IMG/VR virus record: IMGVR_UViG_2671180710_000015
Direction: 5' to 3' (one strand)
Source: a virus
Taxonomy: Duplodnaviria; Heunggongvirae; Uroviricota; Caudoviricetes
Length of the DNA: 8,566 nucleotides
Shown here: in pieces, positions 2,864 to 8,566 of the stretch
How positions within the stretch are numbered: position 1 is the first letter of the stretch
How the letters are laid out: every line of letters starts with the position of its first letter
The notes under the pieces: model-generated
The model's database searches: none
What the model saw: the letters and a program-made list of their open reading frames with translations, nothing else
What the model was told of the DNA's origin: nothing
Translations under genes and position numbers: made by a program

Positions 2864-3111
2864 AATTCCACCTCTCCGGTTTTAACGTTGATGGTTGTTA
2901 CCTGTTCCGCTTCGGCAATCTCCCGTTCTGTCAGCGTGGCAAAGTTTGCCGCCGCCGTGGTCATGAATGCGCTTATCAGGTCGGGATGTTCCTTCGCGTA
3001 TCCTTCCCGCGTGTGGCGGTCTATCGTTCTGATTGCCACCTTTAAGGTGTGCTCAGTCATGTCTAACGCTTTATATTTTGGCTCTGTTCTGTCTCTGCGT
3101 TTTTGGGTCAT
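2860..3111 (-). CDS. Hypothetical protein, 83 aa (alternative start at 3141 gives 93 aa)
   Basis: The ATG at 3111 has GAGAGG about 9 nt upstream and leaves all origin iterons non-coding. The 3141 start would place two iterons inside the ORF. No recognisable family. Confidence 0.55.
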   Translation of the reverse strand: MTQKRRDRTEPKYKALDMTEHTLKVAIRTIDRHTREGYAKEHPDLISAFMTTAAANFATLTEREIAEAEQVTTINVKTGEVEL

Positions 3112-3123
3112 TTCTCGCAACCT

Positions 3124-3314
3124 CTCACTTTTTCGCCTCACTTTTTCAAGCGTCTCACTTCGTCGCAGTTGGGATTTTCGGTTTTTCTATGTGTGTGTTT
3201 CATAAGTATTTTTTTACCCCCTCACTTTTGAGGATGTATACAGGTCGAAAAGTGAGGGAGAGCGGGCTAATTTTGGCCCTCTTTCTATCCCCCTCGCTTT
3301 TGCTCCTCACTTTT
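3124..3314. repeat. Putative replication origin: seven (C)CTCACTTTT iterons in two clusters flanking an A+T-rich spacer
   Basis: CTCACTTTTT occurs at 3124 and 3137, CTCACTTC at 3154 and CTCACTTTTG at 3221. An inverted AAAAGTGAG lies at 3248-3256, CTCGCTTTTG at 3293 and CTCACTTTTA at 3306. The A+T-rich stretch gtgtgtgtttcataagtattttttta lies at about 3190-3217. The element is directly 3' of the helicase gene. Confidence 0.7.
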
Positions 3315-4710
3315 ATAGCGGCGCTACATCATCCCCATCGATACGAATAACCCCATCTTTTTCCAGCTTGTACAGCCAGCGCCGGAAGTTTTTCATTTCA
3401 TACCCCAGCTTTTTCATGTCATCACGTAACAGCGGGATCGTGCACTTGTCGCCGTTCTGTGTGCGTGAACGGATGCACCCCCATAGCGCGGTATGGTTTT
3501 CCGTCTTGTTCCCTGCCTCCTCGATGCGCTCCAGTTCAACAGGAGGGCGCGGATCATCCACCACCACCAGCGACGTGATTAATTCACCGTCAGCGTCGGT
3601 AAAAAGCTCCACCACGCGTAAGTCATATGCGGCTTCTTTGAGTTCCTCCGCGTCCTTCATTTTGGTGCATGAGATAACCAGCGCTTCGCTTCCTGCGTCC
3701 TCCCTGCGTATCCGGTATTCAGCATCCAGCGAAGCACGAAATGCACTGGAACCGCGCGCGCCTTTCGTCTCATCCTTGCCGGAATGGTGAACCACCAGCA
3801 CCGTGGCCCCTGTGCGTCGTTTAAGCTCGTCACAACCACGGATAAACGCCCCCATATCACGGGAATCATTTTCATCATTCCCACCAAAGCAACGCGCCAG
3901 AGTATCCAGAATAATCATGCGTACAGGTTTACCCGTTTCCCGCTCCACCTGACGGGCAGCGATAACCATTTCATCAACATCAAGCGGGGCAGCCGGAAAG
4001 ATGGGACGGTTTACCAGATACAGATTTTTCACCTGTTCACCGTGCACAACCTCCCAGGCTTTTACACGACGCGGAACGCCGATACCGCCTTCACCAACCA
4101 CATAGAGAACCGCACCATGCGCCACCCTGCGGCCTCCCCACTGGCGGCCCGTGGAAACGTGACACGCCCACGATCCGGCAAGGAATGATTTATAGGAACC
4201 GCTCGCCCCGTATATGCTGCAAAGCGATACCGCCGGAATAATTCCCTTCACCACGTAATCAAGCTGCGTGTCGTATCCGGCAGATCCCACGCTCATTGGT
4301 AGCTTGGTTTTTCGCTGGTGGCTCAGGCTTTCCCCGCGTTCCCATGTCTCCCTAAGCCGTGGAAGCTGGTCGCTCCATTCCTCCAGCAATTCGAAATTTT
4401 CAGAAAACAGGCGCGCTTCCTGGACTCCTGCGATTGCCAGTTTCGTGGCGATGGTTAACAACTGCACTTCGTCAATATTTCCGGCACGTATCACTTTCGC
4501 CCTGTATCGCCCATCATCCACAATCTGGAGGTTATCCAGTTCGCTTAACTGATAACGCCCCAGGTAAACGGGAGGGACTGGATCGCCTGCTTTTTTGGCC
4601 TGTGCAATGATGTAGTACTCTGCAAATGAGTGAGCATTATCACCCGCAAAAATAACCGCTTCGGTGTGTTTATCTTTCGGTAACAGTTTTACGTTCGGTG
4701 CCAGTTTCAT
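3313..4710 (-). CDS. Replication initiator/helicase, RepA-like RecA-fold ATPase (AAA_25-type), 465 aa
   Basis: The central domain has Walker A-like GASGSYKS, then GAVLYVVGEGG, Walker B MIILDTL and the sensor block VLVVHHSGKDETKGARGSSAF. The roughly 150-aa N-terminal domain has no recognised fold. The roughly 80-aa C-terminal domain (..FRRWLYKLEKDGVIRI) looks winged-helix-like. No primase motifs were seen. Confidence 0.85.
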   Translation of the reverse strand: MKLAPNVKLLPKDKHTEAVIFAGDNAHSFAEYYIIAQAKKAGDPVPPVYLGRYQLSELDNLQIVDDGRYRAKVIRAGNIDEVQLLTIATKLAIAGVQEARLFSENFELLEEWSDQLPRLRETWERGESLSHQRKTKLPMSVGSAGYDTQLDYVVKGIIPAVSLCSIYGASGSYKSFLAGSWACHVSTGRQWGGRRVAHGAVLYVVGEGGIGVPRRVKAWEVVHGEQVKNLYLVNRPIFPAAPLDVDEMVIAARQVERETGKPVRMIILDTLARCFGGNDENDSRDMGAFIRGCDELKRRTGATVLVVHHSGKDETKGARGSSAFRASLDAEYRIRREDAGSEALVISCTKMKDAEELKEAAYDLRVVELFTDADGELITSLVVVDDPRPPVELERIEEAGNKTENHTALWGCIRSRTQNGDKCTIPLLRDDMKKLGYEMKNFRRWLYKLEKDGVIRIDGDDVAPL

Positions 4711-5011: not shown

Positions 5012-5239
5012 TTATTCTCCGGTGTGGGGCGCTTTATTATTTTCGATAATATCCATTGCCTTATCCAGTTCATCAATAACAGGCGATAGTAATGTCTGAA
5101 TGGCTGCAAACATTAATGACGAAGATTCTTCGCCAGATTCCGGCACTTCAATTAATTTGCCTAACAACGCATTCATTTCCTTTGCGCGGATTAATGCGTT
5201 TTCAGAATGAATAAGAACATCAAAGGGTATTTTATGCAT
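5012..5239 (-). CDS. Hypothetical 75-aa acidic helical protein in a markedly A+T-rich gene
   Basis: The ATG overlaps the stop of the upstream gene (ATGCATAA) with a GGGGTGAG SD-like sequence upstream. A hand count gives 13 Asp/Glu against 6 Lys/Arg. There is no family match by eye. Confidence 0.55.
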   Translation of the reverse strand: MHKIPFDVLIHSENALIRAKEMNALLGKLIEVPESGEESSSLMFAAIQTLLSPVIDELDKAMDIIENNKAPHTGE

Positions 5240-5429
5240 GACTCACCCCCTGGCGAATACGGGCGGCGAATACAGCAACACAACCGGACGGGCAACGGCT
5301 ACGCGCTTCGCGTTCCGTCCAGGCGGTTACGTGGATGATTTGAGATTCTCCGGCACTCAGTGCCAGAAAACGCCACACAAAGGCCGTTTGTGTGTGTGCT
5401 AGTCGTGGGGTATGATTTACGGCAACCAT
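5232..5429 (-). CDS. Icd-like (host cell division inhibitor-like) small protein, 65 aa; first gene of the leftward operon
   Basis: GAGAGG lies 7 nt upstream of the ATG at 5429. The pattern FVWRFLAL...IIHVTAWTEREARS....VAVFAARI recalls the Icd-like proteins annotated in P4-like elements. The call is from memory, not from a search. Confidence 0.5.
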   Translation of the reverse strand: MVAVNHTPRLAHTQTAFVWRFLALSAGESQIIHVTAWTEREARSRCPSGCVAVFAARIRQGVSHA

Positions 5430-5501
5430 AAATTTACCTCTCTATAGTGTTTGTGGTTAGACGCCCTGCATGTGTTCCAGCACTGTGGGGCGTTGTTTTT
5501 T
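5373..5501. repeat. Copy A of a duplicated leader module (5' end of the Icd-like gene, its SD, and a terminator-like hairpin)
   Basis: It shares ordered blocks with 6081-6240 on the plus strand. The blocks are CGTTTGTGTGTGT (5385-5397), CCAT (5426-5429), TTACCTC (5434-5440), TGGTTAGA (5454-5461), and a GCCC..GGGC stem with a T-run (5462-5501). It also contains the hairpin CACACAAA-ggccg-TTTGTGTG (5374-5394). Confidence 0.7.
5462..5501 (+). terminator. Plus-strand terminator-like hairpin antisense to the leader of the leftward operon
   Basis: CGCCCUGCA (5462-5470) pairs with UGUGGGGCG (5484-5492); two of these pairs are G-U. TTGTTTTTT follows. No upstream plus-strand promoter could be identified by eye. 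Confidence 0.4.
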
Positions 5502-5502
5502 G

Positions 5503-5547
5503 GTGCAAGTCACCTTGAAATCTAGGTTACTTTTAGGTGACTTGCAC
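5503..5547. promoter_or_regulatory. Perfect 13-bp inverted repeat (candidate operator) in the divergent control region
   Basis: GTGCAAGTCACCT (5503-5515) and AGGTGACTTGCAC (5535-5547) are separated by 19 bp. The arms bracket the -10 and overlap the spacer and -35 of the proposed leftward promoter. Confidence 0.6.
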
Positions 5548-5572
5548 TTCAAGTCTTTTTTTATTTTTTTTT
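5524..5572 (-). promoter_or_regulatory. Proposed leftward operon promoter (P-left) with an UP-like A-tract
   Basis: On the minus strand, TTGAAG (5552-5547), a 17-nt spacer and TAACCT (5529-5524). It is preceded by A9-T-A7 (the complement of the T7-A-T9 tract at 5556-5572). Confidence 0.4.
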
Positions 5573-5583
5573 CTCCGTATACT
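5556..5583 (+). promoter_or_regulatory. Proposed rightward promoter for the first RHH-like gene
   Basis: TATACT at 5578-5583 lies 30 nt upstream of the ATG at 5614. The -35 position falls in the T7-A-T9 tract, so there is no consensus -35. Confidence 0.3.
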
Positions 5584-5613
5584 GAACACCACCTAACAGT
5601 AAGGAGAACAGAG

Positions 5614-5793
5614 ATGCCAACAGGTACAACCAACAACAAGTCACAACAAAAAACTGCTAGAGTACCTCTAGACGTTTTAAGCGAAATGAATTTGGTAAAA
5701 GAAGAAAACGAAACAGACGCACAATTTATCGTTACTGCCATGCGCGGCGAAATCAAACGCCGCCAGCGTCGCAAGGCCAAAGAATCAGAATAA
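5614..5793 (+). CDS. Ribbon-helix-helix-like small DNA-binding protein, 59 aa (candidate island repressor)
   Basis: AAGGAG (5601-5606) lies 7 nt before the ATG. The pattern ARVPLDVLSEMNLVKEENETDAQFIVTAMRGEIKRRQ fits a beta-strand, helix, helix (Arc/CopG-like) layout. The gene is divergent from the replication operon. Confidence 0.6.
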   Translation: MPTGTTNNKSQQKTARVPLDVLSEMNLVKEENETDAQFIVTAMRGEIKRRQRRKAKESE

Positions 5794-5802
5794 TCACTAT
5801 CA

Positions 5803-5829
5803 GCGCCGTGGTGTGAGGTACTACGGCGC
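5803..5829 (+). other. 10-bp stem hairpin 10 nt downstream of the RHH gene stop
   Basis: GCGCCGTGGT (5803-5812) pairs with ACTACGGCGC (5820-5829), including one G-U pair. The weak U-rich tail is ATTGCTTT. It could be an attenuator or an mRNA stabiliser. Confidence 0.4.
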
Positions 5830-5850
5830 ATTGCTTTACAGGGCAGTACC

Positions 5851-6078
5851 ATGACCAACAACACACTATCACCAATACAAGACACGCAAACGCAAGATGA
5901 TGAAATCATCCGGCAAAGGCAGTCAGAAGCCTGCGCCAGACTTGAGGAAGAACTAACCAGAACAAAAATACCACCACCAGCGCCGCGCTTAGTGCCACCA
6001 GAAAAATTTGCCCTTGAAGATTTTGTCGATAAATACCCACGGCGGCTTAAATCCGGCAAAAACCGACCGCCAGGATGA
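5851..6078 (+). CDS. Hypothetical 75-aa protein (weak call)
   Basis: The ORF is in the same frame as 5614-5793, separated only by one TAA and 19 sense codons. The SD is weak, rare codons are frequent and a Pro-rich centre (KIPPPAPRLVPPEK) is present. No family was recognised. Confidence 0.35.
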   Translation: MTNNTLSPIQDTQTQDDEIIRQRQSEACARLEEELTRTKIPPPAPRLVPPEKFALEDFVDKYPRRLKSGKNRPPG

Positions 6079-6080
6079 GT

Positions 6081-6240
6081 GCACAAAACCGAACTATGAA
6101 ACGGATTATTCCGTTTCCGGGGCGTTTGTGTGTGTATAAAGAGTAAGCTATGCTCTTTTATAGCCATAATCGTTACCTCAATTAATGGTTTGGTTAGAAG
6201 CCCGTTGGTGTTCATAGCGCCAGCGGGCTTTGCTTTTTGT
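6081..6240. repeat. Copy B of the duplicated leader module; on the plus strand it is a candidate sRNA / structured 3' UTR
   Basis: It carries the same ordered blocks as copy A: CGTTTGTGTGTGT (6123-6135), CCAT (6164-6167), TTACCTC (6173-6179) and TGGTTAGA (6191-6198), then a terminator. An extra perfect hairpin GAAACGGA-ttat-TCCGTTTC (6098-6117) is nested inside an outer CACAAAAC/GTTTGTG stem. Confidence 0.65.
6199..6240 (+). terminator. Rho-independent terminator, plus strand
   Basis: GCCCGUUGG (6200-6208) pairs with CCAGCGGGC (6220-6228), followed by UUUGCUUUUUGU. Confidence 0.6.
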
Positions 6241-6258
6241 GTTGATTGTGTGTAATAT
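6230..6258 (+). promoter_or_regulatory. Possible promoter of the second RHH-like gene
   Basis: TTGCTT (6230-6235), a 17-nt spacer and TAATAT (6253-6258). TGTAAT/ATTACA motifs lie at 6251-6256, 6277-6282 and 6288-6293; the last two flank the SD. Confidence 0.35.
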
Positions 6259-6297
6259 GTCACTACACATAAATACATTACATGAGGTGTAATTAAC

Positions 6298-6477
6298 ATG
6301 TCAATACACAAAAACGAAAGGCGTGGTAATCCTCCGTTCCAGTTCCGTTTAGATCCTGACTTACGGGAAAAGATGGAAAAGGCACAACAACATGACGGCG
6401 ATGATTCTCTTGCTGCCTGGATAAAGCGAATAATCCGCAAAGAATTACAGCAACGCGGCATAGAACCCAAAGGGTAA
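6298..6477 (+). CDS. Ribbon-helix-helix (Arc/CopG-like) small DNA-binding protein, 59 aa
   Basis: Hand-translated and below the track cut-off: MSIHKNERRGNPPFQFRLDPDLREKMEKAQQHDGDDSLAAWIKRIIRKELQQRGIEPKG. GAGGTG lies upstream of the ATG. It has the classic RHH layout of FQFRLDP strand, LREKMEKA helix and SLAAWIKRIIRKEL helix. Confidence 0.65.
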   Translation: MSIHKNERRGNPPFQFRLDPDLREKMEKAQQHDGDDSLAAWIKRIIRKELQQRGIEPKG

Positions 6478-6566
6478 TTACATTGCCCACCAGCCTGATA
6501 GCGGCTATCATTCCCGTGCTTATGTTTGGGATCACATAAGGCGCAGCAGGTTAATTGTTCACAAGG

Positions 6567-6592
6567 GCGTTCCGGCAACGGGGCGCTTTTTG
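6567..6592 (+). terminator. Rho-independent terminator (plus strand), convergent with the alpA 3' end
   Basis: GCGUUCCG-GCAA-CGGGGCGC is an 8-bp stem with two G-U pairs and a GNRA loop, followed by UUUUUGUU. On the minus strand no U-tract follows, so alpA read-through is possible. Confidence 0.6.
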
Positions 6593-6621
6593 TTATGTTC
6601 ATCGTGTTATGCCTCACACCA

Positions 6622-6828
6622 TTACGCAGCCGTTCCGCGTGCTTCCTGCTCACGTTCTTTCATCCATGCGATTACGTCTTCCTCATACCATCCGCGACGG
6701 CGTAAACCAACGCGAAAACCCTGCGGAAATTCTCCGGCGTTGATCATGCTTTGAAGCGTGCTGTCTGCCTTGATGTGGATAAGTTTTTTTACTTCCTGGC
6801 GAAAGATGACTTTTTTGATTGCTTCCAT
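6622..6828 (-). CDS. alpA: AlpA-family transcriptional regulator / excisionase-like HTH protein, 68 aa
   Basis: Typical Phage_AlpA pattern: FRQEVKKLIHIKADSTLQSMINAGEFPQGFRVGLRRRGWYEEDVIAWM. AAGGT lies 8 nt upstream of the ATG. Confidence 0.85.
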   Translation of the reverse strand: MEAIKKVIFRQEVKKLIHIKADSTLQSMINAGEFPQGFRVGLRRRGWYEEDVIAWMKEREQEARGTAA

Positions 6829-7324: not shown

Positions 7325-8566
7325 CTAAACGGCTCGGATACCCCTTTTACCACTGGCGAGGGTTACGCCCGTCGCCGCAGCCTCGACAAATTCGCCCCAC
7401 CAGCGCATAAGCACCACGCGTTTTTCTATGTAGTTGCTCCGGTTGTATGCCCGTCTCACTTCGTTAGTGTCGACGTGGGCAAGTGCGGCCTCGATTACGT
7501 CCGGCTCGAATCCTTCCTCGTTCGCTGCTGTACTGAATATGGCGCGTAATCCATGAGACACCAGCACGCCAGCGAACCCCATGCGTCGTAATGCTGCGTT
7601 TGCTGTCTGGCTGTTCATTGGCTGCCGTGGGTCTTTCAGACTCGGGAAAACATAATCGCGGTGGTGGCTGATTGGTTTCATGGCCTCCAGCACCGCCATA
7701 GCCTGACCGGAAAGTGGGATAACGTGATCCCTGCGCATCTTCATGCGTCCGGCGGGTATCGTCCAGCGTTGCGCGTCCAGGTCGATTTCATCCCACCGCG
7801 TTGATGACGCTTCGGCGGGACGGGTTACGGTCAGTAACTGCCATTCAATCAGTAATCTGGTCTGCCGTTCTGTTGCCGATACTGATAAAGCCTGCATAAG
7901 CTCCGGCAACTGTTCGGGGCGGATTGTTGGCATATGTTTTTTTACAGGGGAGGGGAACGCCTTACGCACATTCATAGCCGGATTGGCATCAATCAGCCCA
8001 CTGTTGGCGGCGTAATCCATTACCTCATTAACGCGCTGTAAAACCCGTTTGAGTGTTTCCAGGTTGCCGCGCTCCTTGATGGGGGTAAGCACCTCAACGA
8101 ACCTGCGAGCGGTCAGGGTGTCTATTGGGGTGTTGCCGATGAACGGGAATACATATTTATCCAGCGATCGCCAGATGTCTTTAATCGTGTTGGGGGCCAG
8201 ATTCTGGCTGATTTTCACCTGGTACCATGCCGCCGCCACATTTTCGAACGTGTTCCCTTGTCTTCGGGCCTCTGCCTCTCGTTTTTTCTTCTCATGGCCC
8301 TGCGGGTCAGTTCCGGCACTGATTAACGCTCTGTACTCGCTACGGCGTTTTCTGGCATCAGCCAGGGAAACATCATCAAGCGATCCAAAACTCAGCAATA
8401 TTCTTTTTTTGTCCGATGGCCGGTAGTAGGAAAATCGCCAGAGTTTTGATCCGGACGGTTTGACCAGGAGAAAAAGCCCTCCGCCGTCCTGTAGGGTGTA
8501 TTCCTTTTCCGCTGGTCTGGCTGCTTTGATCTGCACCGTGGTTAATGGGGGTGTTTTTCTCGCCAT
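7325..8566 (-). CDS. int: Tyrosine recombinase/integrase, P4-type (DUF4102 N-terminal arm-binding domain plus catalytic domain), 413 aa
   Basis: The N-terminus LTTVQIKAARPAEKEYTLQDGGGLFLLVKPSGSKLWRFSYY is the classic P4-like integrase signature. Catalytic motifs are present: TVTRPAEA (Arg), HGLRAIF (His-x-x-Arg) and AHVDTNEVRRAYNRSNY (His and Tyr). The ATG is at the window edge. Confidence 0.95.
   Translation of the reverse strand: MARKTPPLTTVQIKAARPAEKEYTLQDGGGLFLLVKPSGSKLWRFSYYRPSDKKRILLSFGSLDDVSLADARKRRSEYRALISAGTDPQGHEKKKREAEARRQGNTFENVAAAWYQVKISQNLAPNTIKDIWRSLDKYVFPFIGNTPIDTLTARRFVEVLTPIKERGNLETLKRVLQRVNEVMDYAANSGLIDANPAMNVRKAFPSPVKKHMPTIRPEQLPELMQALSVSATERQTRLLIEWQLLTVTRPAEASSTRWDEIDLDAQRWTIPAGRMKMRRDHVIPLSGQAMAVLEAMKPISHHRDYVFPSLKDPRQPMNSQTANAALRRMGFAGVLVSHGLRAIFSTAANEEGFEPDVIEAALAHVDTNEVRRAYNRSNYIEKRVVLMRWWGEFVEAAATGVTLASGKRGIRAV

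Follow-up and report, generated by a model that had tools for sequence, protein, structure and literature searches.

SymR, a cis-antisense RNA of about 77 nt in Escherichia coli K-12, is transcribed from a promoter within the open reading frame of its target, symE, which encodes a toxic small protein of the AbrB fold (RF01809; PMC1891008). The -10 element of symR lies inside the symE ORF, as was proven by mutation (Kawano et al. 2007, PMC1891008). From a start about 3 nt before the CAU that complements the start codon, the RNA forms a 5' hairpin containing the anti-start codon and the anti-Shine-Dalgarno (anti-SD) sequence, followed by a GC-rich 3' hairpin. Translation initiation of Icd-type first genes is blocked by other RNAs, namely c4 of P1 and P7 (with icd-ant as target) and CI of P4, which act on repeated a/b or seqA/seqC sites. 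Both c4 and CI arise from the sense strand, by processing of the operon leader transcript. In type I toxin-antitoxin systems with a 5'-overlapping antitoxin RNA, the start of a small toxic-protein gene is covered by a constitutive antisense RNA.

The window analysed here, a stretch of 8,566 nt, belongs to a PICI/P4-like phage satellite of E. coli and contains genes for an integrase, AlpA, a RepA-type helicase, terminase and capsid. Among complete genomes of E. coli, 1161 of 5426 have DNA like the region of interest. A search of the phage collection with 5232-5520 returned no DNA match and a single protein match. The minus-strand replication operon is headed by a 65-aa Icd-like gene (5232..5429), an ORF whose product matches NCBIfam NF033153 (phage_ICD_like, host cell division inhibitor Icd-like protein) at 64.8 bits, against a cutoff of 25, over residues 17-60; PGAP gives its homologues the same name. 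Divergent from it on the plus strand is a 59-aa gene of the YlcI/YnfO family (5614..5793; phrog_949; NF041551, 61.7 bits, cutoff 30). The promoter region between the two contains a perfect 13-bp inverted repeat, GTGCAAGTCACCT / AGGTGACTTGCAC (5503..5547), which is probably an operator. This stretch is hypervariable among islands, whereas the adjoining RNA module described below is conserved.

Two further plus-strand genes follow. The first, a 75-aa ORF (5851..6078), has no assigned function and no family match in Pfam, NCBIfam or PHROG searches; its homologue WP_012601535 is present in two related loci, L001 and L006. The second (6298..6477, 59 aa) is Arc-like, matching the phrog_228 Arc-like repressor at E = 4e-6, and weakly YlcI-like, its 17.6-bit score to NF041551 being below cutoff. 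A homologue of this second gene sits divergent to an intact Icd-like gene in locus L005. Pfam likewise gave no match for the Icd-like, YlcI or 59-aa Arc-like genes. A 398-aa minus-strand ORF (5457-6653) running through the downstream repeat was considered as a real eta-like gene and rejected, as it has no family match and is antisense to three plus-strand genes, two of them with family support. Throughout the region, genome annotation pipelines call spurious "Icd-like/ash family, incomplete" pseudogenes.

The start of the Icd-like gene belongs to a repeat with two copies, A (5382-5500) and B (6120-6240), whose blocks are co-linear at a constant offset of 737-739 nt. An exact 13-mer, CGTTTGTGTGTGT, at 5385-5397 and 6123-6135 is followed in both by a 28-nt spacer and then by CCAT (5426-5429 and 6164-6167), TTACCTC (5434-5440 and 6174-6180), a GGTTAGA block and a GCCC...GGGC hairpin with a T-run. 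From 6167 the minus strand of copy B translates as MAIKEHSLLFIHTQT. These blocks had been listed in the first-pass annotation, and all were found where it had placed them. Its identification of copy A as the genuine initiation region for Icd-like translation likewise agrees with the NF033153 match, and its view of copy B as a homologous copy of A is borne out by the co-linear repeats and by shuffle tests. The alignment it had suggested, of 5360-5510 with 6075-6245, scored 34 against 17.1 +/- 2.4 for 2000 dinucleotide shuffles, none of which reached 34. Global alignment of the two RNA-sized segments gave z = 9.5, with 0/5000 shuffles as high. A repeat search returned three co-linear families (spacings 738, 739 and 737 nt), and, apart from A itself, no part of the window on either strand matches A as well as B does.

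That the copies are alike by chance, sharing no more than generic hairpins and simple (GT)n sequence, could be argued from the low complexity of the exact 13-mer, from the modest identity of the copies (about 70%) and from the failure of nhmmer, with A as a single-sequence query, to recover B at E <= 1e-3. Against it stand the shuffle tests, the three repeat families and above all the wider family, in which both window copies fall among more than 100 variants and are connected by mosaic intermediates in related islands. The repeat is real and above chance; this family-level evidence already refutes a fortuitous origin, to which we attach practically no credence.

The plus strand of both copies has the hallmarks of a small structured RNA that ends at an intrinsic terminator and contains the complement of both the SD and the start codon of the Icd-like gene, as the first-pass annotation had recognised. 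For copy A, the predicted antisense RNA (5424..5501, plus strand; about 77 nt) is delimited by its fold, a sub-threshold symR match and the model CM R1 (74 bits). In its first stem-loop, 5424-5433 pairs with 5449-5458, placing the anti-start codon CAU (5427-5429) in the 5' arm and the anti-SD (5437-5442) in the loop. A terminator hairpin (5460-5494) and a T-run (5496-5501) follow, and a terminator scan lists a terminator-like site at this RNA. The predicted copy B RNA (6160..6240, plus strand), delimited by its fold, the terminator scan and CM R1 (63.9 bits), repeats this layout. Both the CAU (6165-6167) and the anti-SD, CCUC (6176-6179), fall within its stem-loop 1 (6161-6196); the terminator hairpin (6197-6231), listed by the scan as a terminator-like site with 16 pairs, precedes a T-run at 6234-6238. 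An invariant UGGUUAGA block separates the first hairpin from the GC-rich terminator. T-runs are weak in many homologues, and as an internal control, Icd-like paralogues that are internal to an operon and not its first gene are missing the module.

Folding energies distinguish the two strands. The plus-strand RNAs of A and B fold at -30.3 kcal/mol (z = -5.7) and -36.5 kcal/mol (z = -6.35), whereas the complementary strands are weaker (z = -1.8 and -2.5, respectively). The plus strand folds better in 76/76 variants, with a mean of -35.1 vs -22.8 kcal/mol. The covariation analysis proposed at first pass was carried out on 92 distinct sequences, in which pairing is kept in 99.0% of pair cells and compensatory changes occur at 7 of the 16 pairs, counts that are not independent events because all the sequences are from Escherichia or Shigella and the region is highly recombinogenic. 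One example is the pair of columns 41-73, which is AU in 46 sequences and CG in 39. No shuffle attains the observed values, and slid controls are 37-50% paired. About 17% of the cells are G-U pairs, for which the opposite strand would have C-A mismatches, so that the fold is plus-strand-specific. A scan of genome contigs with the Icd-like alignment returned only three loci, all from Escherichia or Shigella, so covariation has no deep phylogenetic spread to draw on.

A candidate promoter for this RNA lies inside the Icd-like coding sequence. In copy A, a predicted -35 element TTGTGT (5388..5393, plus strand; Icd-like codons 13-14) stands 17 nt upstream of a predicted -10 element TATGAT (5411..5416; codons 5-7), with the first nucleotide of the RNA expected 3-5 nt ahead of the ATG complement. 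Copy B has the same -35 hexamer (6126..6131), again 17 nt upstream of its predicted -10 element TATGCT (6149..6154), which was assigned from the sequence and from comparison with homologues. The first-pass annotation had taken the exact 13-mer for a pairing block, which it most likely is not: it holds TTGTGT and is upstream of the predicted RNA start.

An HMM built on the RNA part alone recovered 114 unique instances in 252 related loci. At a single offset, all 114 have a -10-like hexamer (TATGAT in 91, TATGCT in 21, and TATAAT and TATAGT in one each), and TTGTGT is present at the copy A offset in 47 of them. The two exceptional hexamers, one of which is the perfect consensus TATAAT, change a His to Tyr in the protein while keeping T1, A2, T3 and T6. 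In one leader type, whose protein begins MRNHTTHP..., the start codon is 6 nt nearer the -10 element while the distance from the -10 to the hairpin is the same. The spacing of the -10 element is thus fixed independently of the start of the reading frame. This leader type is without the -35 hexamer and has TGG directly upstream of the -10, forming an extended -10 element.

Part of the conservation of both hexamers could nevertheless reflect selection on the protein, because they overlap codons (H-T and H-T-Q). This overlap suits an account without any regulatory RNA, in which the block simply combines the leader and N-terminal codons of the Icd-like mRNA with a terminator or insulator on the plus strand that stops antisense or upstream read-through. 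The proposed promoters match consensus at 8/12 positions and were not listed by a generic promoter scan of the window (threshold 9/12), which also favours that account; the proven symR promoter, by our own reading, likewise matches at 8/12. Set against it are the -10-to-hairpin offset, fixed in 114/114 despite the 6-nt start shift and nonsynonymous changes, and stem-loop 1, which is not a terminator and yet keeps a plus-strand-specific fold, rich in G-U pairs, over different sequences. We regard the RNA-free account as unlikely, though deserving of serious attention.

The resemblance of the predicted RNA to SymR is close in layout. Among 4227 Rfam families, the best match for copy A is symR (5424-5497), aligned over its full length and in the CAU register, at 25.9 bits against a gathering score of 61 bits for RF01809; copy B was not reported. 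The symR model also matches two related leader types, at 28.4 and 24.1 bits, and most other leader types have no symR match. Reciprocally, the best match of our CM in a 14-kb stretch of K-12 (7835-7914) coincides with annotated symR (7836-7912), although its 17.2 bits is barely over a noise match at 15.9 bits. Statistically, the resemblance is marginal. In architecture, predicted folds, the covarying consensus and the full-length alignment to both models all describe an RNA of about 77 nt that folds into two hairpins and spans the SD and AUG of its target, with a 5' hairpin containing the anti-start codon and anti-SD ahead of a GC-rich 3' hairpin. The -10 element, invariant in 114 instances, is exactly as far from the start-codon complement (CAT) as in symR, an RNA start is predicted some 3 nt ahead of CAU, as in SymR, from a candidate promoter within the target ORF, and the two share a UAGUG.UUGUG.UUAG stretch.

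The element also departs from SymR in several ways. Here the target is Icd-like (NF033153) rather than the AbrB-fold SymE, a variable inverted repeat beside a YlcI/Arc-like gene takes the place of a LexA box, and the terminators have T-runs, which symR does not; the scores, at 24-28 bits, are well short of gathering. The relation may be one of either homology or convergence. The Icd-like protein may be toxic, as SymE is, which would also recall type I toxin-antitoxin systems, except that the toxin there stands alone whereas the Icd-like gene heads a long replication operon.

Copy B is, judged by its sequence, the 5' end of a second Icd-like gene, truncated after 15 codons. Its N-terminus MAIKEHSLLFIHTQT matches that of an intact Icd-like protein, P0034 (MAIKEHSLLFIHTQTAF), and blastn aligns window positions 6120-6213 with the P0034 locus (L248) at 94.7% identity. 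Homology to P0034-type intact genes stops at 6120..6122, at minus-strand codon 15/16; upstream of the breakpoint the intact gene reads ...CACAAAGGCCG and the window ...TTTCCGGGGCG. The P0034-like N-terminus and the loss of homology at 6120 identify copy B as an orphan. The perfect 8-bp hairpin at 6098..6117 (plus strand), which the first-pass annotation had noted, is indeed present, after the ORF stop and ahead of the junction; it falls outside the repeated module, in the sequence that replaced the Icd-like body. The junction is identical in all orphan copies of other islands, where promoter and fold are kept and TTGTGT is unbroken in every orphan variant. In each copy-B-bearing island inspected, the 75-aa ORF is directly upstream.

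This position, directly after a plus-strand ORF and with a strong terminator, is what the RNA-free account would expect of an inert scar kept as terminator of the 5614-6078 operon. Copy B probably does terminate that operon, and its terminator hairpin would be kept even if this were its sole job. The truncation, however, spared the whole promoter-to-terminator unit and nothing more, which speaks against the RNA-free account. The copy B RNA is predicted to pair with the A start region over SD and AUG at -18.7 kcal/mol, and the whole-RNA duplex scores -66.8 vs -35.3 +/- 4.3 for shuffles. On these predicted energies, copy B might plausibly act in trans on the leader of A.

The first-pass annotation had suggested c4/CI-like antisense control of the Icd-like gene. 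Antisense control of the start region is well supported by the sequence; the c4/CI-like kind is not. Under that proposal, copy B would supply a trans-acting immunity RNA of the c4 (P1) or CI (P4) type, pairing through the 13-mer and anti-SD with repeated complementary leader sites. The predicted pairing of the B RNA with the A start region is compatible with this, and related islands do contain a genuine C4 RNA (L002:2275-2362; RF01695, 72.6 bits), on which the C4 model evidently works, together with an a1b1 site (RF03163); such islands have both C4 and the antisense cassette. That C4 unit, however, is elsewhere in the island, on the sense strand, before a second, internal Icd-like gene. Scanned against Rfam at E <= 1, the window gave only the sub-threshold symR match and a chance snoRNA match, with no C4, a1b1, isrK or other phage RNA. 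Relative to the Icd-like gene, the stable covarying fold and the terminator lie on the opposite strand, and the element appears to be an independent antisense gene with its own promoter; the 13-mer, upstream of the predicted start, would not be transcribed as part of the RNA. Nor do the two copies correspond to seqA/seqC-type target sites, as had been proposed: they are two paralogous, complete antisense cassettes. We consider a c4/CI-type mechanism very improbable.

The most probable explanation, in our view, is that the cassette is a SymR-like antisense RNA gene, of which A is the working copy and B an orphan. The unit would consist of a divergent YlcI/Arc-like DNA-binding gene on the plus strand, a variable operator/promoter and, on the minus strand, the leader with the first 15 or so Icd-like codons; embedded in the leader, on the plus strand, would be the complete gene for the cis-antisense RNA. 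The YlcI/YnfO gene is the partner of unit A and the Arc-like gene that of unit B. We infer transcription of the RNA and repression of translation from sequence features. By analogy with SymR and symE, pairing of the RNA with the leader of the Icd-like mRNA would block ribosome binding and perhaps hasten decay. A toxic first gene would in this way remain unexpressed until transcription is induced strongly enough to outrun the RNA, and polarity might also restrain the downstream replication operon. Copy A (5388-5501) would be the cassette still serving the Icd-like gene of the window, its predicted target. Copy B (6120-6240) would have lost its Icd-like body in one ancestral recombination that kept exactly promoter, RNA and terminator; now just past the 5851-6078 ORF, it may still yield an orphan RNA that pairs imperfectly with the A leader.

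A broader scenario is more speculative, and we think it slightly less likely than the RNA-free account. Satellites, plasmids and the chromosome might share a portable, SymR-related module of leader and antisense RNA, placed before toxic or costly cargo such as Icd-like replication operons, a BREX operon on plasmid pLR-06-2 and perhaps symE. Leader variants would then be RNA specificity types, and orphan B a trans-acting RNA repressing the Icd-like/replication leaders of competing B-type islands and, in part, its own A-type leader, amounting to RNA immunity between satellites.

A literature search covering Icd-like antisense RNA, SymR in prophages, PICI/AlpA small RNAs, YlcI/YnfO and conserved 12-mers found nothing relevant but the SymR paper. 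If made, the RNA would represent an unannotated small-RNA family, absent from Rfam 15 at gathering thresholds, placed where the replication and packaging operon begins in a common class of E. coli satellites. Satellite induction in Gram-negative islands has so far been described mainly through the activator AlpA, and the RNA would add a post-transcriptional layer to it. SymR, an isolated case so far, would gain relatives or close analogues in mobile elements.

The window is a PICI/P4-like phage satellite. Its integrase gene (7325-8566) is followed along the minus strand by an AlpA-like regulator (6622-6828) and a replication operon, which begins with the Icd-like gene (5232-5429) and continues through a minus-strand 75-aa ORF, a DUF4222 gene, and a RepA-type AAA_25 helicase gene (3313-4710); farther along the same strand are ORFs whose translations read as terminase-like and capsid-like. 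The interval from the Icd-like gene to AlpA has three genes on the plus strand: a YlcI/YnfO gene (5614-5793), an ORF of 75 aa (5851-6078), and a 59-aa gene that is Arc-like and weakly YlcI-like (6298-6477). Terminator-like hairpins are found on the plus strand between the first two (5803-5829) and past the 59-aa gene, convergent with AlpA (6563-6590). DNA similar to 5200-6700 is carried by 1161 of 5426 complete E. coli genomes. In just 10 of these does a single site contain at least 80% of the stretch; mosaicism here is therefore high.

Two segments of this region, copy A (about 5382-5500, facing the Icd-like gene) and copy B (about 6120-6240), form a real repeat. All of the shared blocks listed in the first-pass annotation were found: the 13-mer CGTTTGTGTGTGT (5385-5397 and 6123-6135), an equal 28-nt spacer leading to CCAT (5426-5429 in A, 6164-6167 in B), TTACCTC, the GGTTAGA block, and a GCCC...GGGC hairpin with a T-run. 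The minus-strand reading MAIKEHSLLFIHTQT and, on folding, the extra perfect hairpin at 6098-6117 ascribed to copy B are likewise present. A repeat search of the window returned three co-linear families with spacings of 738, 739, and 737 nt. The local alignment of A with B that the annotation had proposed scored 34, against 17.1 ± 2.4 for dinucleotide shuffles (0 of 2000 equalled it), and the copy B region is the top non-self match for copy A in the whole window. Global alignment of the RNA-sized parts gave z = 9.5. Similarity is modest (about 70%), and nhmmer with copy A as the only query missed copy B at E <= 1e-3; family intermediates connect the two.

Each copy, read on the plus strand, resembles a full small-RNA gene. 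A predicted -35 hexamer (TTGTGT; 5388-5393 in A, 6126-6131 in B) is separated by 17 nt from a predicted -10 hexamer (TATGAT, 5411-5416; TATGCT, 6149-6154), placing the RNA starts at 5424 and about 6160-6162, respectively, 3-5 nt ahead of the ATG complement. This arrangement would explain why the 13-mer is identical, since the -35 lies inside it, and why the 28-nt spacer is constant, since it holds the promoter spacer, -10, and discriminator. The -35 is weak, and the hexamers overlap codons. Selection on the N-terminal peptide might also preserve such hexamers, though this peptide lies outside the Icd-like HMM domain (residues 17-60). We gathered 252 related loci, mostly via the Icd-like protein and all from one freely recombining genus, among which an HMM built from the RNA part alone identified 114 unique instances. 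All 114 have a -10-like hexamer at a constant offset (TATGAT in 91, TATGCT in 21, TATAAT and TATAGT in one each). In the two exceptions, one of them the perfect consensus TATAAT, His is changed to Tyr in the protein while T1, A2, T3, and T6 of the hexamer are retained. In leaders of the MRNHTTHPQGR... type, the start codon is 6 nt nearer the -10, and the H-T pair is set apart from the Icd domain by four additional codons. These leaders lack a -35 and instead have TGG immediately ahead of the -10, forming an extended -10. Because the -10-to-hairpin distance is the same as in other leaders despite the moved start codon, and because of this extended -10, the pattern fits promoter selection better than peptide selection.

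Read on the mRNA strand, the (GT)n hairpin at 5374-5394, within Icd-like codons 12-19, resembles a weak terminator with an 8-bp stem and the tail GCGTTTTCTG. MRNHTTHP-type leaders do not keep it; it may serve as an attenuator or simply reflect the sequence around the -35.

Both copies are predicted to fold on the plus strand into two hairpins (-30.3 kcal/mol, z = -5.7 for A; -36.5 kcal/mol, z = -6.35 for B), while for the complementary strands the folds are poor (z = -1.8 and -2.5). In hairpin 1, the 5' arm contains CAU and the anti-SD is exposed; hairpin 2 is a terminator followed by the T-run. The covariation analysis suggested in the annotation bore the fold out: among 92 distinct CM-aligned sequences, all from one freely recombining genus, 99.0% of pair cells are paired, and compensatory changes occur in 7 of the 16 pairs (columns 41-73, AU 46 and CG 39; columns 51-63, GC 74 and CG 18). 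No shuffle matched these figures, and sliding the partner columns reduced pairing to 37-50%. About 17% of pair cells, counted from the per-pair table, are G-U, which become C-A mismatches on the mRNA strand; the plus strand should therefore fold better, as it does in 76 of 76 variants (mean -35.1 vs -22.8 kcal/mol).

The first-pass annotation had likened this arrangement to c4/CI control, but an Rfam search of the window gave no C4, a1b1, or isrK match. The P1-type system does occur in the island family, as a different element located elsewhere: the related island of E. coli NMBU-W12E19 (L002) has on its minus strand a bona fide C4 antisense RNA (RF01695; 2275-2362) scoring 72.6 bits, together with an a1b1 site (RF03163; 2430-2479) scoring 46.8 bits. 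Both are on the sense strand, after the first Icd-like gene and in front of the second, internal one, in a segment that is absent from the window; some islands thus stack SymR-like and c4-like control in series.

The best Rfam match to copy A is symR (5424-5497), full length and in register with CAU, but its 25.9 bits fall short of the gathering score (61) and so of family membership. For two other leader types, the symR scores are 28.4 and 24.1 bits; most types are unmatched. Pairwise alignments to K-12 symR gave z = 3.7 and 3.9. Run on a 14-kb K-12 stretch, a module covariance model from 42 variants had its best match at 7835-7914, where symR is annotated at 7836-7912, scoring 17.2 bits with a noise match close behind (15.9 bits). 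The symE ORF contains the symR promoter, and a CATTCT to CACTCC change that abolished this promoter defines its -10 as TAGAAT (Kawano et al., PMC1891008). This -10 stands 10 nt from CAT, as TATGAT/TATGCT do in the module, with TTCTGC 17 nt upstream of it. In K-12 symER (L007:7913-8068), the LexA box CTGTATATATCATCAG adjoins the RNA 3' end, where the satellites have a variable inverted repeat, so that the loci are laid out in parallel. We therefore propose from this shared anatomy that the module works like SymR; common descent is possible, the SymR statistics being marginal.

Past the terminator, similarity between the islands gives way to many unrelated inverted-repeat regions, which probably serve the divergent YlcI/Arc-like genes as operators. 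The variants look like a set of operator (immunity) types that go with different YlcI/Arc-like genes. In the window, the inverted repeat between the divergent genes is a perfect 13-bp one, at 5503-5547. Conservation is thus confined to the RNA module, with the variable operator region on one side and a variable N-terminus on the other; Icd-like paralogues internal to the operon lack the module.

In the simpler islands L005 and L004, an intact Icd-like gene follows a leader of this family and diverges from a YlcI gene or from a gene homologous to the 59-aa one. The intact Icd-like protein of L248, P0034, has the N-terminus MAIKEHSLLFIHTQTAF, identical to the copy B reading, and its divergent partner is a 59-aa YlcI-like gene. 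Window 6120-6213 shows 94.7% homology to this locus; upstream of 6120, the intact gene runs on in L248, whereas the window changes to ...GAAACGGATTATTCCGTTTCCGGGG. Since the N-termini match and the homology stops at 6120, copy B is the 5' end (leader and 15 codons) of a second Icd-like unit whose gene body has been replaced. Orphan copies in other islands always directly follow a homologue of the 75-aa ORF and share an identical junction, so the replacement happened once, in an ancestor. Promoter, fold, and terminator are intact in all orphan variants. Copy B probably serves as the terminator for the 5614-6078 operon. An RNA from copy B could also pair with the copy A start region, with 9 + 7 bp predicted over AUG and SD (-18.7 kcal/mol) and a whole-RNA duplex of -66.8, against -35.3 ± 4.3 for shuffles. 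A 398-aa minus-strand ORF (5457-6653), antisense to the three plus-strand genes, has no family match. Over the equivalent antisense stretches in L002 (3086-3643) and L003 (2715-3722), PGAP calls pseudogenes named "Icd-like / ash family, incomplete"; the relic leader probably gave rise to these calls as artefacts.

The repeat is best read as two SymR-like cis-antisense RNA cassettes, one cognate (A) and one orphan (B). We infer that a constitutive antisense RNA would pair with the Icd-like leader and mask its SD and AUG, so that this first gene, which resembles a division inhibitor, would stay untranslated until the operator-controlled promoter is induced and its transcripts outnumber the antisense RNA. 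Through polarity, the RNA may also restrain the downstream replication genes.

The cassette is common in E. coli satellites and is a variation on a known type of control, apparently undescribed in the literature. In L004, a TIR-domain gene (2905-3780) lies between the YlcI gene and AlpA, the slot held in the window by copy B's extra cassette; from this shared position, the slot may be a cargo or defence hotspot. Plasmid pLR-06-2 (NZ_AP025548.1; L252) carries an intact module at 3013-3088 (68 bits, -10 TATGCT in place). There, the module and a divergent 59-aa gene precede an ORF starting MAGSQHTQTRPEFTWRF..., followed by a WYL-domain gene, DUF1819, DUF1788, and BrxC, a BREX operon. Heading such an operon, the cassette seems to be portable and able to head defence cargo.
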